From NCBI GenBank assembly GCA_048886185.1, contig JBHLKY010000001.1, positions 284,046 to 316,045 of the forward strand: DNA of 32,000 bases. Direction: 5' to 3'. Under the pieces are notes generated by a model. That model worked only from the letters and a program-made list of their open reading frames with translations. It was not told where the DNA came from and ran no database searches. The first letter of the stretch is position 1, and each line of letters starts with the position of its first letter. The DNA is from Candidatus Hermodarchaeota archaeon. Its GTDB lineage: Archaea; Asgardarchaeota; Heimdallarchaeia; Hodarchaeales; Hodarchaeaceae. This document shows positions 9,014 to 14,108 of the stretch, piece after piece. Made by a program: the position numbers and the translations under genes.

Positions 9014-10168
9014 TTAGCCCCATCGGTTATTTAGAAGATTTTCCTGAAACATTTTAATTAATTTCTCGTAATTCTTCCCAGAAAGACGATACATCTTTTT
9101 TGTTGAGATAGGTTTATTACATCGGGAACAAATATCTGCAACACTAAGCCATTTTTCTAACTCAAGCGAATGAGCTGGATGACCACAATGAGGACAGATG
9201 ACTACTTTCTTATCTGGTTCAGTGGGAAATCCATAACAAAAAATACATCGAAAGTCATCATGAGATAAATGTTGGCCAGAGGGAATAAGCTTAGTAATGA
9301 TAGCTGGATTTAGTCTGTCGATACGAGTAACTGTTCTCCCTGTTTGTATTCCTGGAGCTACTGTAACAGAGTTGATACTTTCGGATCGTGGTGTTCTAGA
9401 CATTTGGGGTACTGATCTTGGTTGTAATAGGCTTGCTTGATTCGTTCTTGGTTGGCTATTTGCATTGCGAGGACTAACTGAGGATGTTCTATTAACAATA
9501 AAAGATCTCCCTAATGTTTGTTGAGGTAAACGATTAACAGTCACACGACGGATTGGAACAAGAACAACCTTAAGTATATAATATTGGATCAGAAAAATAA
9601 TACTAACACTAACAAAACATAATCCACTAAATTCAATAATCCTAGTTTGGATCCAAAAAAAAGCTAAACTTAAAATTATACAGAGATTATACAGAATGAC
9701 AATTTTGTTGGGAACCTTCCTTCTAAAGATAAAAATTGATGGATACCTGTTTGAATAATACTTTTGGAGGAGAAATAGGAGAAATATAAAGAATGGTAAC
9801 ACAAAAATAATACTAAATATGTTTAGAAAAACAAAATAATTTCCACCATTAATAAACTCAATGTCGAGAGAGATTTCGAAGAAAGATGATCGTAGAAAAT
9901 CATTTTCTCCTAAAGACGCTGTATGAGCTATCAATGTTCCCCCATATGCGATTAACGACGGGATTCCAATAAAGATTCCCGAGGCAATTGGAGCATTATA
10001 ATGCTGGAAATATCGCCATTCCTCAAGAAATTTTAAAATCAAAATTGCAGTTAAAGTAATATAAGCAATTGTAAGAGCAGTTTCTATTGGTTGATCAGTG
10101 AGTAATGTTAATAGCGTAAAAACAAACCCGACGACACAGATAGAAAGATATACATTACGCCCGACCAA
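9014..10168 (-). CDS. Membrane-anchored RING-H2-like putative E3 ligase (about 6 TM, disordered linker, C-terminal RING variant)
   Basis: TTG start with GAGGT upstream; TM segments within aa 5-204; C308-x2-C311...C325PHC328GH330PAH333SLE336LEKW340...C347-x2-C350; operon position after JAB/E2/E1. Confidence 0.85.
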   Translation of the reverse strand: MVGRNVYLSICVVGFVFTLLTLLTDQPIETALTIAYITLTAILILKFLEEWRYFQHYNAPIASGIFIGIPSLIAYGGTLIAHTASLGENDFLRSSFFEISLDIEFINGGNYFVFLNIFSIIFVLPFFIFLLFLLQKYYSNRYPSIFIFRRKVPNKIVILYNLCIILSLAFFWIQTRIIEFSGLCFVSVSIIFLIQYYILKVVLVPIRRVTVNRLPQQTLGRSFIVNRTSSVSPRNANSQPRTNQASLLQPRSVPQMSRTPRSESINSVTVAPGIQTGRTVTRIDRLNPAIITKLIPSGQHLSHDDFRCIFCYGFPTEPDKKVVICPHCGHPAHSLELEKWLSVADICSRCNKPISTKKMYRLSGKNYEKLIKMFQENLLNNRWG

Positions 10169-10186: not shown

Positions 10187-11107
10187 TTAATTCTCATGAT
10201 CATATTCTAAAAACATACTACCATTTTTCTCTGCTAGTGGAAGAAGGGTATTCATCATCTCAGGAAGGCTCTCTAGAGGGCAATTAAGGACTTGGTAGGG
10301 TGGTTCTTCCCAGGTTTGCAAATCCTCTTTTAAACGGAATATTTTAAAGCCATATGAACGTTTAGATATTTTTGTTGGATCAATAACTAAAGCAATAGGT
10401 GCTGTTAACTGGGAGTCTTTCGTCCTTCCAAGTTTTTGGTAGCGAACTTGAGTCTCAAAATCGGTTTGACTCATGAATACTCCATATGATGGGTGACTAT
10501 GATACCAACCAAGAATAAGCTGATCATGGGTTTTCATTTTTATTTCATTATACACTCTGACCATGGATTGAGGATCTTGGATTTGTGCATTTACCTCAGT
10601 GCCATGACCAATTGGATAGGCATCCTCGACATTTAAACATGCTAATGGAGTATCTTTTTGTTCAATTTGTCCCGTTAAAAGCCCGATTACCTCAATCCAT
10701 TTACTTTGGGGTGTATTCGGATTTGCGTACTTTAAAGCATGTAAAGCAAGCTTTATGTAAGCTTTAAGATGAATTTTAACACGAGAAGGCTTCGAGTCGG
10801 GATCTAGGTCATCAAGATTTAAGTCAACAGATTCTGTGTTTTCTTCTCGATTTTGATTCATATTATGATTTTCATCCTTATTGAGATTCTCTGATCCGTT
10901 GGTAAAAAGCTTCTCTGTTTTTGTTTTTAATTGGGAAGGTTTAAACTGTATTTGCTTACTTAATGGATTCCAAGTATAATTATCAGGCGGGAGAGTAATG
11001 AAAGGAAATTTTAACGTAAATGATAAAGTTTGAGGGTCAAATGTTAATGAAAGATCCCGTAGTAGTAATTCGAAAACATTTTTGGGAATTTTATTATTAT
11101 TAGGCAT
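10187..11107 (-). CDS. JAB1/MPN+ (JAMM) metalloprotease, Rpn11/CSN5-like deubiquitylase or Ubl maturase, with about 110-aa N-terminal extension
   Basis: RVKIHLKAYIKLALHA...EVIGLLTG and LGWYHSHPSYGVFMSQTD (E...HxHx7Sx2D intact), IALVIDP. Confidence 0.93.
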   Translation of the reverse strand: MPNNNKIPKNVFELLLRDLSLTFDPQTLSFTLKFPFITLPPDNYTWNPLSKQIQFKPSQLKTKTEKLFTNGSENLNKDENHNMNQNREENTESVDLNLDDLDPDSKPSRVKIHLKAYIKLALHALKYANPNTPQSKWIEVIGLLTGQIEQKDTPLACLNVEDAYPIGHGTEVNAQIQDPQSMVRVYNEIKMKTHDQLILGWYHSHPSYGVFMSQTDFETQVRYQKLGRTKDSQLTAPIALVIDPTKISKRSYGFKIFRLKEDLQTWEEPPYQVLNCPLESLPEMMNTLLPLAEKNGSMFLEYDHEN

Positions 11108-11136: not shown

Positions 11137-11664
11137 TTACCATTTTTCAGAAGCATATTTCTTAGTAATTTTATGGGCTTTTTTCAAGAAATTCTTGCGA
11201 TCACTAAGATATTCTTGAGCTGCTTTCTTATTGAAAACATCATGAGGATTAGTATACGCTGTGTCAATGTTGAACATTGCTAAAATCGAATAAATTATTG
11301 TACTAATGTTTTTTGAAGGAGACCAACCGTCTGGTCTTCCCACAAGGTCGGGGTCAACAAGAGCTAGGCATATATTCCGTTTTCCTTGATATTCGTCAGG
11401 TTTTGGCCAGAAATTTGGATGCCAAATTGGAGTATGTAATCGGACAAAAGGGGGGGAATATGGGTAGTTTGATCCAAACTTAATTTCTAGTTTGAATTTG
11501 CCCTTTTCATAAGGGGTTCCTTTCGGTCCCTCAAGAAGAATTGCTAAGTGTTCTACGCTTTTTTTTCCGCCTGGAAAGGCCTTTAGCTGCTTAATGGTTT
11601 TTTGTTTGTATAATTTTTTTAGTTGTTTATAATCATCAGCGATTCGTTTAAGTCTGATAGACAT
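11137..11664 (-). CDS. Ubiquitin-conjugating enzyme E2 (UBC fold)
   Basis: RLKRIADD, GPKGTPYEKGKF, YPYSPP, HPN (82-84), catalytic C99, WSP, PHDVFNKKAA. Confidence 0.95.
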   Translation of the reverse strand: MSIRLKRIADDYKQLKKLYKQKTIKQLKAFPGGKKSVEHLAILLEGPKGTPYEKGKFKLEIKFGSNYPYSPPFVRLHTPIWHPNFWPKPDEYQGKRNICLALVDPDLVGRPDGWSPSKNISTIIYSILAMFNIDTAYTNPHDVFNKKAAQEYLSDRKNFLKKAHKITKKYASEKW

Positions 11665-11680
11665 TTCTCACACCTTTTTA

Positions 11681-12925
11681 TTACTCAATTTTCAATTTAA
11701 TATAGGATTGAGTGCCATCATCAAACCCCGTGACCAATATAGTCTCATAATCTCGGATTCCAGCTTCAAATATGCTCTGATTTGTATCAATTTCATTAAT
11801 ATCTGAATTATCTATACGAAAAACAATTGGAGGAAATTCTGGATCAATGGTGAGCTTTTTTTCTTCCGCTAATTTATTGATGATCTTTTGAATATTTGCC
11901 TTAGAATTCACTTTTATCCGATAGAGGGGGGAATGGTTATTACCACACATTGTACAATCTGGGTTCTTAGGTTTTTCAATTTCATAGAACTTCCCAGTCA
12001 AACCATTGTATATCACATAATTTAATTGAAGTGTTCCAAGTTTTCTTTTTTCTGGAGGTGTGTGGAGATGATGAAGAATTTTAACTGCTTCTTGTGATTG
12101 TAGAGATGCCATTACACAATTGATGGTGATAACTGTTGGCTCGTGATTATCTATTATTTGGATGATCTGATCAGTCGTAAACGGTTGTGAGCCGGGAAAA
12201 TATTGTTTAAGTAGATGATTCGCATATTCTCTAATGGTGTCAACTTCATCTTGTTTGAGAATGTTCACCGGCCGATTGTAATCCTGTTCAAATTTCAATT
12301 GGCCTTTGAGTATACAATGAGCTGGTCTACGGGGATTACCTACTAAAGTGCAAGCCCCTAGCTGATCTTGTTCTCGTTCTGTTAATGGATCACACTCTAA
12401 ACAAGCATTACTGAATGGCCAGACACAATAAACGTGTCCATTGAATGCTGCTGTACCAGCATCGATCAATGGCTTTCGATTATGAATAGCTCGCCTGTTT
12501 AATTCTGACCTTGCTTCTATTGAATCTAAGCCAGCGATGTAAAGATCAGCTTCATTATATAGATGGGGAGGTAGATCTTGAAGCGCGCAATTATGAGCCT
12601 CTACTTCAATGAAAGGATTCAATTCTTGTAAACGTTTAGCCGCATATTGTGCCTTAGATGTTCCCTCTGTGGCTCCGATGAACAGTACCTGGCGATTCAA
12701 ATTAGAATATTCAATTGTATCAAGATCCACCAGGATTAATCGGCCGACTCCGACCATTGCGAGGTTTTTTGCAACTTCCACACCGAGGCCACCAACGCCA
12801 ACAATAAGAACGGTACTTTTTTTAAGGATCTCTTGTTTCCATCCAGGTAAACGGAGTTGGCGATCAAAGCGACGCTTTTCTTCTTCAGTGAACAGGTTAC
12901 TGGTGAAACTTGATATTTTATTCAT
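11681..12925 (-). CDS. Ubiquitin-like activating enzyme E1 (ThiF adenylation domain, catalytic Cys insert, C-terminal ubiquitin-fold-like domain), UBA3/UBA2-like
   Basis: RFDRQ, VGVGGLG, DLDTIEYSNLNRQ, DAGT..FNG, Zn pairs CLEC and CTMC, ACTLVGNPRRPAHC with putative catalytic C192. Confidence 0.93.
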   Translation of the reverse strand: MNKISSFTSNLFTEEEKRRFDRQLRLPGWKQEILKKSTVLIVGVGGLGVEVAKNLAMVGVGRLILVDLDTIEYSNLNRQVLFIGATEGTSKAQYAAKRLQELNPFIEVEAHNCALQDLPPHLYNEADLYIAGLDSIEARSELNRRAIHNRKPLIDAGTAAFNGHVYCVWPFSNACLECDPLTEREQDQLGACTLVGNPRRPAHCILKGQLKFEQDYNRPVNILKQDEVDTIREYANHLLKQYFPGSQPFTTDQIIQIIDNHEPTVITINCVMASLQSQEAVKILHHLHTPPEKRKLGTLQLNYVIYNGLTGKFYEIEKPKNPDCTMCGNNHSPLYRIKVNSKANIQKIINKLAEEKKLTIDPEFPPIVFRIDNSDINEIDTNQSIFEAGIRDYETILVTGFDDGTQSYIKLKIE

Positions 12926-12938
12926 ATTTTTTCAACTA

Positions 12939-13301
12939 CTAATTTATTGATCCAGCTGTTGAAACTGGGATAATCAAACATTCAAGTCCATCTTCAATAT
13001 CATAATTCGAGAGAACATCATCTGCATCTAAGGTTCTTCCACTTATGGATATATGGAAGTCTTGTGGATCAAGACCGAAGATTCCTCCAAGCGTTTCTTT
13101 TAAATCTGAGACCCCCATCTCAGGATCGATTGTGAGTTTTTCAAGTTTCTCTCCAGGCCCAATTGTGGATCGAAAGAATAAACTAACGCGAGAATCTTTT
13201 GGGATTTTACTTGTAGGCACTTTTGTCGTCACTACAGGAGTTTCTGAGTTCTTCTTTTCTTCTTCAATTTCCAGGTCATCAAAATCTTCATTTTCAGACA
13301 T
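12939..13301 (-). CDS. Ubiquitin-like protein B: acidic N-terminal extension, beta-grasp core, ends STAG-SIN (putative pro-form)
   Basis: Start placed at ATG 13301 (GGAG upstream; MSENEDFDDL parallels Ubl-A). Core FHISISGRTLDADDVLSNYDIEDG aligns without gaps to ubiquitin residues 43-64. Confidence 0.9.
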   Translation of the reverse strand: MSENEDFDDLEIEEEKKNSETPVVTTKVPTSKIPKDSRVSLFFRSTIGPGEKLEKLTIDPEMGVSDLKETLGGIFGLDPQDFHISISGRTLDADDVLSNYDIEDGLECLIIPVSTAGSIN

Positions 13302-13477
13302 TAAGCAATTCTCCATTCTGATTAAAAGCATCCAAATTATCAATTCATCTTCAATATGAAAAACATTGTTTTTTGAATCTTCTTTTGTTTGCAAATAATC
13401 TTCTGAATACGTCAATTTAATTATTCCCTTTTATCTCATAGGTACAAAATTGATGTGATTTGATGATGGAAATTGAT

Positions 13478-13681
13478 TCAAATCAAAATCTCCCCTAAGA
13501 TAGACTCTTTTCCTGATTGAAGAAGCCAAAGATTAGCTTGAATATAATACTCAATTGACGCTAGTAACAAATTTAAATCGCTTTTGCAGTCTTTATGTTC
13601 GCTAAGAGCCCTTTTTGCTTTCTCTCGCTCAACCATGGCAAAAACAATTGTTTCAATAATACTAGCTCGAACCTCTTTCAA
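13478..13681 (-). CDS. Small hypothetical helical protein between the two Ubl genes
   Basis: 67-aa ORF with TTG start filling the gap between the Ubls on the operon strand; no clear family. Confidence 0.4.
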   Translation of the reverse strand: MKEVRASIIETIVFAMVEREKAKRALSEHKDCKSDLNLLLASIEYYIQANLWLLQSGKESILGEILI

Positions 13682-13701
13682 TAAAAAGCCATCCTGAGAA
13701 G

Positions 13702-13731
13702 ATAAAAAGAAGGGGAGTTCTTTCTTTTTAT
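13702..13731 (-). terminator. Hairpin/oligo-T terminator-like element after Ubl-A
   Basis: 10-bp inverted repeat ATAAAAAGAA...TTCTTTTTAT enclosing (minus strand) AGAACTCCCC; begins about 30 bp after the Ubl-A stop. Confidence 0.5.
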
Positions 13732-13760
13732 TCTAAAAAGTTGAATAATATGGAAAAAAC

Positions 13761-14108
13761 TCATCCAGCCGTACTGTGAGGGATCAAAAGAATTTCATCG
13801 CCGTTATCGACACCATAATCACCTAAAGGTGCTGACTCATCTAGAGTCCGACCGGCGTGGCTTAGATGAAAATCATCTGGATTTAACCCAAAGATGTTAG
13901 CCAAGGTGTCTCTGACGTCTCTAACAGGAGTGTTTTCTCCTACAGAAATTTTTTCAGTACGTTCAGGCCCAACGGTGGATTTGAAGAAAATATTCTTCTT
14001 AGGACCTGCAGATACTCCTGATACTGGAGTTTTCGATTGGGCGGGAGTTTTGGATTTAATTCTGGTTTTTTCTTCTAAATCAAAGTCCAAATCTTCAAAA
14101 TCTGACAT
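13761..14108 (-). CDS. Ubiquitin-like protein A: acidic N-terminal extension, beta-grasp core, mature C-terminus STAG
   Basis: AGGTGA ribosome-binding site before the ATG; FHLSHAGRTLDESAPLGDYGV matches ubiquitin [20 protein letters not shown]; ends GDEILLIPHSTAG*. Confidence 0.92.
   Translation of the reverse strand: MSDFEDLDFDLEEKTRIKSKTPAQSKTPVSGVSAGPKKNIFFKSTVGPERTEKISVGENTPVRDVRDTLANIFGLNPDDFHLSHAGRTLDESAPLGDYGVDNGDEILLIPHSTAG

Follow-up and report, generated by a model that had tools for sequence, protein, structure and literature searches.

Two ubiquitin-like genes at the head of an operon

A pair of genes for ubiquitin-like proteins, Ubl-A and Ubl-B, was analysed together with the operon to which they belong, in a 32,000-nucleotide stretch of contig JBHLKY010000001.1 from a Candidatus Hermodarchaeota archaeon (below, "the window" means this whole stretch). 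The window forms the end of a 316-kb contig in a genome of 4.8 Mb that is 96% complete. Seven open reading frames (ORFs) run in tandem on its minus strand from position 14108 to position 9014, with Ubl-A first and a putative RING-like E3 last. The features that concern the two modifiers are:

13761-14108, minus strand: Ubl-A, 115 amino acids (aa), a ubiquitin-type beta-grasp domain after a disordered acidic/basic N-terminal tail of ~36 aa
12939-13301, minus strand: Ubl-B, 120 aa when read from the ATG at 13301, paralogous to Ubl-A
12942-12950, minus strand: tail codons TCA ATA AAT (Ser-Ile-Asn, SIN) of Ubl-B, in the spacer region, within the 13-nucleotide gap ahead of E1 (start codon at 12925)

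Ubl-A ends IPHSTAG-stop (...ACG GCT GGA TGA; on the minus strand Ala is at 13767-13769, Gly at 13764-13766 and the stop codon at 13761-13763) and carries no tail. Ubl-B ends IPVSTAG-SIN-stop (...ACA GCT GGA TCA ATA AAT TAG; Gly at 12951-12953, Ser at 12948-12950, Ile at 12945-12947, Asn at 12942-12944 and the stop codon at 12939-12941). An earlier sequence-only reading of this DNA had reported that both domains close with Ala-Gly, which is the case; its placement of the TCA codon at 12951-12953 was one codon off, as these positions hold the Gly codon and TCA occupies 12948-12950. The start of Ubl-B is most likely the ATG at 13301 rather than the upstream TTG at 13415, because the resulting N-terminus (MSENEDFDD...) parallels that of Ubl-A (MSDFEDLDF...). 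The Ubl-B open frame of one congener, which bears on this choice, is only 118 aa long.

The two proteins share 43% identity (E 9e-31). The Pfam ubiquitin profile (PF00240) matches Ubl-A with 31.2 bits, above its cut-off of 25.4, and Ubl-B with 21.1 bits, under that cut-off; it matches all 66 family members that we aligned (best E 3.5e-10). NCBIfam returned no named family for Ubl-A, Ubl-B or the E2 of the operon. An AF2 model of Ubl-A has a mean pLDDT of 78, with the core (residues 37-110) at about 90. The best Foldseek match of this model is Caldiarchaeum ubiquitin (6fno_D; 29% identity, TM 0.82, E 1.3e-08), and in VIA-align ISG15, ubiquitin and NEDD8 match it over 74-80 residues with Z-scores of 13.6-15.5.

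The position of the unusual residue relative to ubiquitin (Ub) is well defined. Family profile positions 50-106 align without gaps to ubiquitin 11-67, which places Gly115 on Ub Gly76 and Ala114 on Ub Gly75 (Ubl-A numbering). Structural alignment of the model, which pairs residues 37..115 with Ub 0..76, gives the same register, so that profile and structure agree with the register first proposed from the letters alone. The proteins lack the Gly-Gly terminus of the ubiquitin family: the final Gly is retained, and the equivalent of Ub Gly75 is an invariant Ala.

The N-termini of both proteins (13995-14108 in Ubl-A; 13190-13301 in Ubl-B) are disordered over ~36-40 residues and are modelled with low confidence. 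This stretch opens with a conserved acidic motif of the D-F-x-D-L type, in which Phe is present in at least 90% of the 66 homologues, followed by a segment rich in K, T and P.

Conservation of the Ala-Gly terminus

Word-indexed searches and an exhaustive profile search together yielded a family set of 200 motif-bearing proteins, and in every one of these (200/200) x-Ala-Gly closes the domain. The commonest forms of the end are VSTAG (95), HSTAG (52) and ASTAG (21). In the 66-homologue alignment the Ile and Pro of the motif, Ser112, Ala114 and Gly115 are invariant, and Thr113 is conserved in at least 90%. Being invariant in the aligned set and present in all 200 retrieved members, Ala-Gly is therefore conserved far beyond chance. 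Homologues ending mostly in Gly-Gly would have told against the sequence-only reading, and what was found is the reverse. The alignment of homologues that it had proposed gave a divided answer: STAG is conserved and the SIN pro-tail is not.

Taxon labels on the records of family members are Hodarchaeales, Heimdallarchaeota, Promethearchaeota (Lokiarchaeia) and Hermodarchaeota. Within a sample of 201 Asgard genomes, each at least 80% complete, the family was found in 78; these cluster in few taxonomic families, and none was found in several others. Taken together, the results assign the two genes, as paralogues A and B, to a distinct family of ubiquitin-type modifiers in Asgard archaea with an invariant Ala-Gly in the motif I-P-x-S-T-A-G. 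No description of an Ala-Gly-ending archaeal Ubl family was found in the literature searched, the coverage of which was incomplete and hence is no proof of novelty.

The same genome also encodes modifiers of the usual kind, in at least two further Ubl/E1/E2 clusters. Contig C14 (~34.6-45.6 kb) carries a canonical-looking ubiquitin ending TTGG-NK with an E1 adjoining, and on contig C8 (~9.9-13.2 kb) a Ubl ending IKGG adjoins an E1, and genes for an E2 and a JAMM lie close by. The Ala-Gly end is therefore specific to the cluster studied here and not a habit of the organism. A third cluster, on contig C10 (~154-157 kb), has a ThiF gene with weak E2-like matches and a weak JAB match alongside.

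Several observations concern the number and setting of family members. Genomes of one large taxonomic family (coded f14) typically have 2-4 copies in the phylum sample, and on a Loki-type contig (L048) a second member, ending IPASIAG-KCIC, lies upstream of a Ubl-E1-E2-JAB operon; multiple paralogues therefore recur beyond Hodarchaeales. Family Ubl domains ending STAG, SRAG or SHAG also occur as the C-terminus of larger proteins (P0217, P0251, P0197 and P0200), of which one is a HerA-like ATPase, one combines CDC48_N with VWA, and two have long acidic or uncharacterised N-terminal parts. No E1 or E2 adjoins P0197 on its contig.

Origin and lability of the Ubl-B tail

Two assemblies made in the probable source study (depth 12 and 19.5) agree in the Ser-Ile-Asn codons. 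In an independent study of an estuary metagenome, a contig covering 12922-13469 shows 10 differences over 548 nucleotides and none within 12939-12959. The tail codons are kept in this independent contig, and the tail is therefore not an assembly error. The exact 120-aa Ubl-B is recorded on 6 contigs. The exact SIN tail was absent from every other retrieved homologue, and the nearest relatives have the tails FILNRS, H, R or YY, or none. The sequence-only reading had allowed that SIN might be a sequencing error or a private mutation: the independent contig excludes the former, and in its exact form the tail is indeed unique among the retrieved sequences.

Across the 200 members, 99 are without a tail and 101 have one, of 1-7 residues and mostly of 1-3. 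The family tree resolves an A clade and a B clade (the latter with 85 rows), each with a support of 98, and both are about half tailed. Tail state requires at least 44 changes on a tree of 198 tips, where the mean for shuffled states is 66. The 17 congeners that have a tandem pair divide into 9 with a tail on B alone, 4 with one on A alone and 4 with none; in no case are both Ubls tailed. In the four congeners with an A-only tail this reads WN or WR. An operon of the same layout (L051) carries tails on both Ubls (RY and KI), and thus all four combinations occur. The pattern of "never both tails" (0/17 congeners; nominal hypergeometric probability ~0.03) was set aside, because the four A tails are near-identical, so that a single event is possible, and because L051 is tailed on both.

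Comparison of orthologous spacers between Ubl-B and E1 shows how readily a tail appears: single-base differences toggle between no tail (TAG), I (ATC TAA), IYY, FDF and SSNRS. Read from these sequences, the Ubl-B tail is the translated short spacer that precedes the E1 start codon. As the tails derive from the spacer and toggle in this manner, the likeness of TGA in Ubl-A to TCA in Ubl-B is incidental. The single-base difference to which the sequence-only reading drew attention is a coincidence between genes that are only 43% identical.

The observed tails are 1-5 aa long (median 2), compared with a median of ~11 codons for random stop loss in tail-less genes, which hints, in a small sample of related members, that long tails are selected against. 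Because related congener tails read SSNRS and FILNRS, the sequences suggest that SIN is a shortened form of an older tail and not a new read-through. The tail is a labile, non-conserved cap that has been gained and lost fast on either paralogue, and it does not constitute a fixed regulatory switch.

Two further features of the spacer were noted. The sequence TGA AGT TGA G is conserved just 5' of the E1 start in several congeners (12926-12941 in the window, and the orthologous spacers), where it provides the stop codon that ends most Ubl-B tails; this element may be an E1 translation-initiation signal. In three congeners (G014, G015 and G006; loci L009, L012 and L013, respectively) the Ubl-B stop codon lies in the E1 frame with no other stop between, and one read-through there would yield a Ubl-E1 fusion, an arrangement possibly due to chance (one frame in three).

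Probable processing of the Ala-Gly terminus

Three enzymes of a predicted conjugation system are encoded downstream of Ubl-B:

11681-12925, minus strand: E1-like activating enzyme of the ThiF family, 414 aa (Pfam ThiF, E 2.6e-54)
11137-11664, minus strand: E2-like conjugating enzyme (UQ_con), 175 aa (Pfam UQ_con, E 3.2e-27)
10187-11107, minus strand: Rpn11/CSN5-like JAMM metalloprotease, 306 aa (Pfam JAB, E 1.8e-15)

By its Pfam matches the locus has the composition of an archaeal ubiquitylation operon of the eukaryote-like (Caldiarchaeum/Asgard) type, in which genes for a ThiF E1, a UQ_con E2 and a JAMM accompany that of the modifier. The E2 shows an HPN motif and a downstream Cys. NCBIfam matches of the E1 to MoeB/ThiF and Ube1 were all under cut-off.

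The protease motif (E...HxHx7Sx2D) is intact, and Glu139, His203, His205, Ser213 and Asp216 are invariant in 49 homologues. Its best solved relatives are Caldiarchaeum Rpn11 (CsRpn11; E 1.3e-12) and then eukaryotic Rpn11. A complex of the JAMM (residues 100-306) with Ubl-B (38-120) and Zn was modelled with a score of 0.90, against 0.01 for the best control; in calibration the mark was reached by 58/80 solved complexes and by 2/110 mismatched pairs. Between runs at least 97% of the contacts recur, with a partner pLDDT of at least 91. The modelled interface brings JAMM residues 139, 203, 205 and 213-216 together with Ubl-B 109-120. Because the complex of CsRpn11 with Caldiarchaeum ubiquitin (CsUb) has been solved (6FNN/6FNO), the pass may reflect likeness and is not independent proof.

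Head-to-tail genes bear on the same question. Three Ala-Gly Ubl units are fused in P0182 (L046/L047) and two in P0183 (L052), the tri-Ubl gene being present on two contigs of different sources. Each unit has its own acidic N-terminal linker of ~40 residues, and at the junctions ...STAG, ...SQAG or ...FSTAG is followed directly by the acidic N-terminus of the next unit. The genes close with a 2-residue tail and lie on contigs of ~1.2 kb. Release of monomers from such units therefore requires cleavage after Ala-Gly.

For E1 to adenylate the carboxylate of the Gly, any tail must first be taken off; this is established chemistry, shown for CsUb (PMC6043591) and for the bacterial modifier BilA (PMC10557695). 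The CsUb precursor is trimmed by CsRpn11 (PMC6043591), and BilC, a JAMM, cleaves BilA between Gly97 and Ala98 to leave a mature end of Val-Ala-Gly (PMC10557695). On the strength of its sequence and of the modelled complex, the operon JAMM is a credible tail-processing enzyme. The JAMM is retained beside the Ubls in the tail-less congeners G001, G014, G015 and G018; an additional role in removing conjugates would explain why tail-less genomes keep it.

Remaining genes of the operon

Two further ORFs complete the set of seven:

13478-13681, minus strand: small ORF (67 aa) situated between the two Ubl genes, with no Pfam match
9014-10168, minus strand: putative E3, 384 aa, with a hydrophobic, membrane-like N-terminal part (by eye) and a Cys/His-rich, RING-like C-terminal zinc finger

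Searches with tblastn found the 67-aa ORF at 46-57% identity in congeners G021, G011, G020 and G018, which form a subclade, and L051 has a 70-aa gene in the same position; congeners with shorter A-B spacing gave no match. The putative E3 shows weak zinc-ribbon matches only, and a RING family match was absent from the Pfam scan. On two other contigs, one of Loki type and a second one of Hod type, proteins of 374-400 aa take its place in the operon. The Loki-type contig has the order Ubl, E1, E2, JAB and 400-aa protein, and the gene order of the second Hod-type contig is the same.

Membership in a defence system was considered and set aside, as PADLOC returned nothing specific. It gave no match for either Ubl or for the RING-like protein, although its 2023 library may lack Bil models; the E1 matches E1-E2 (Cap2-like) models by its adenylation domain only, and the JAB and E2 matches are weak. 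No defence context was seen within the window.

Discussion

The explanation that we favour, and regard as likely, is that Ubl-A and Ubl-B belong to an Ala-Gly modifier family with its own enzymes, a labile cap and trimming by the JAMM. The family is accompanied by an E1, an E2, an Rpn11-like JAMM and a putative membrane RING-like protein of its own, and exists beside Gly-Gly systems in the same genome. Where a cap is present, as SIN on Ubl-B, it would be cut off after Gly, prior to E1 adenylation. The operon JAMM probably trims this cap, and the same enzyme probably also strips the modifier from its targets. A single E1/E2 pair would conjugate both Ubls. The sequence (trim, activate, conjugate, remove) is the known one, and both JAMM tail trimming and an Ala-Gly end are already documented elsewhere; no new mechanism is revealed.

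A further, more tentative idea is that the STAG end acts as a recognition code separating this pathway, with its putative membrane RING-like E3, from the Gly-Gly pathways of the same cell. On this reading the enzymes would discriminate at the penultimate position: E1 and JAMM of the Ala-Gly pathway would take Ala and refuse Gly-Gly, and those of the other systems the opposite. We consider this possible, but would not give it even odds.

Several points weigh against the favoured explanation. CsRpn11 processed CsUb far more slowly once the penultimate Gly had been replaced by Ala, and was blocked by bulky residues immediately behind the cut (PMC6043591); in the Ala-Gly family the residue after the cut is often bulky (L, F, Y or W). 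Given the Ala at the penultimate site and these bulky residues, the operon JAMM could therefore do the processing only with a pocket that differs. The genome also contains at least three other JAMM genes, and another protease could trim the tail. Finally, that Ala-Gly serves as a mark of specificity is something we purely infer.

An unlikely alternative, although the strongest of those considered, is a protease-gated two-modifier system, in which Ubl-A is ready for use, the tail keeps Ubl-B inactive pending release by the JAMM, and two paralogues exist for the sake of this asymmetry. The asymmetry is present here, exactly one Ubl is tailed in 13/17 congeners and both in none, and tails shorter than random stop-loss extensions hint at constraint. 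However, the tailed paralogue flips (B in 9, A in 4), four genomes are tail-less and L051 is tailed on both; with the WN/WR tails of A perhaps due to one event, 0/17 is not statistically meaningful. Moreover, the A and B clades are each about half tailed and the Ubl-B tail is translated spacer. That Ubl-B needs the co-encoded JAMM, as the sequence-only reading proposed, is thus credible as regards trimming (the intact motif, the CsRpn11 relative and the score of the modelled complex), and a protease-gated design is unsupported as a conserved feature (four tail combinations and at least 44 changes).

We regard it as improbable that tailed Ubl-B is never processed and acts as a non-covalent adaptor or decoy for E1/E2, with only Ubl-A being conjugated. 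Non-conjugated Ubls do exist, Hub1 being an example. Yet IPVSTAG is invariant in tailed and untailed orthologues of Ubl-B, which is unexpected for an unused terminus, the tail differs among close relatives, and the model places residues 109-120 in the JAMM groove.

Still less probable is that the proteins are archaeal UFM1 homologues whose single-Gly end reflects UFM1 ancestry. UFM1 has the same I-P-x4-G spacing, and its pathway uses UFC1 and cysteine proteases. By contrast, the E2 of the operon is UQ_con and its protease a JAMM. PF00240 matches 66/66 members, and Ufm1 (PF03671) is not among the matches listed at E up to 10; the whole genome is without a PF03671 match at E up to 1. The best folds are CsUb, ISG15, ubiquitin, SUMO and NEDD8, and UFM1 is not among the best 50 rows of Foldseek or VIA-align. 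A 2026 study reports UFM1 homologues in nine Asgard clades by structural modelling (PMC12962969). On profiles and the listed folds we rejected assignment to the UFM1 family and retain it solely as an analogy at the level of the motif. The comparison with UFM1 made in the sequence-only reading holds for the spacing only; profiles and folds place the family with ubiquitin, CsUb and ISG15.

The least probable reading takes SIN for an error of sequencing or assembly, or for the outcome of a stop codon lost recently and privately, without biological meaning. It has in its favour that no other retrieved homologue has exactly this tail, and is contradicted by the agreement of the two source-study assemblies with the independent estuary contig, by the occurrence of the protein on 6 contigs and by the related congener tails SSNRS and FILNRS.

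The favoured explanation, an Ala-Gly family with its own enzymes and a trimmed, labile cap, has close parallels in characterised systems. The operon of Caldiarchaeum subterraneum (Ub, E1, E2, small RING and Rpn11; PMC5654768, PMC6043591) has the same gene set, including a zinc-finger E3 candidate, and CsUb, like tailed Ubl-B, is made with a C-terminal extension, which CsRpn11 removes (PMC6043591). CsUb ends in Gly-Gly, however, and its Gly77Ala variant, which has an Ala-Gly end, is processed far more slowly, whereas the family described here is invariantly Ala-Gly. Also unlike Caldiarchaeum, the present operon has two paralogous modifiers, a long disordered N-terminal tail and a putative E3 with a membrane-like part (by eye).

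The nearest experimental precedent in which an Ala-Gly end occurs together with a variable tail and a JAMM is BilA of Ensifer aridi (type II BilABCD; PMC10557695), in which a universally conserved Gly is followed by up to nine non-conserved residues and the mature end is Val95-Ala96-Gly97. BilC cuts after Gly97 and also removes conjugates (PMC10557695). Bil differs in belonging to bacterial antiviral defence and in having an E2 of the CEHH type (PMC10557695).

Among Asgard archaea, a Helarchaeial pro-ubiquitin with E1/E2/RING (10.1101/2023.07.25.550441) has a short extension, Ser-Pro-Lys-Asn, and conjugation was reconstituted with the trimmed form; that modifier has a Gly-Gly end and is linked to ESCRT, and the Ala-Gly family is separate from it. 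In UFM1 and ATG8, the single-Gly modifiers of eukaryotes, the reactive Gly is likewise preceded by a residue other than Gly, and a short pro-peptide is present. No profile or fold evidence of a specific relationship was found, and the present operon encodes ubiquitin-type enzymes (UQ_con E2, JAMM) and not UBA5/UFC1/UFSP or ATG7/ATG3/ATG4. Eukaryotic polyubiquitin genes are also head-to-tail precursors that need a protease, and the two- and three-unit genes described above similarly end in a short tail; unlike those of polyubiquitin, their units differ in sequence and each has an acidic N-terminal linker.

Asgard Ubl operons serve to reconstruct the origin of the eukaryotic ubiquitin system, and the Asgard and Caldiarchaeum modifiers studied to date end in Gly-Gly. 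The presence of an Ala-Gly system beside Gly-Gly systems in one genome offers a natural test of whether the tail sequence sets the specificity of E1 and protease. In annotating such genes, short tails should not be taken for errors. As the sequence-only reading anticipated, di-Gly proteomics would miss the conjugates of this family; the search for an Ala-Gly remnant that it recommended would fail with trypsin, since both Ubls have their last Arg 28 residues ahead of the C-terminus and the branch on a target lysine would be 28 residues long, so that Glu-C, or a Lys introduced by engineering as with BilA, would be needed.

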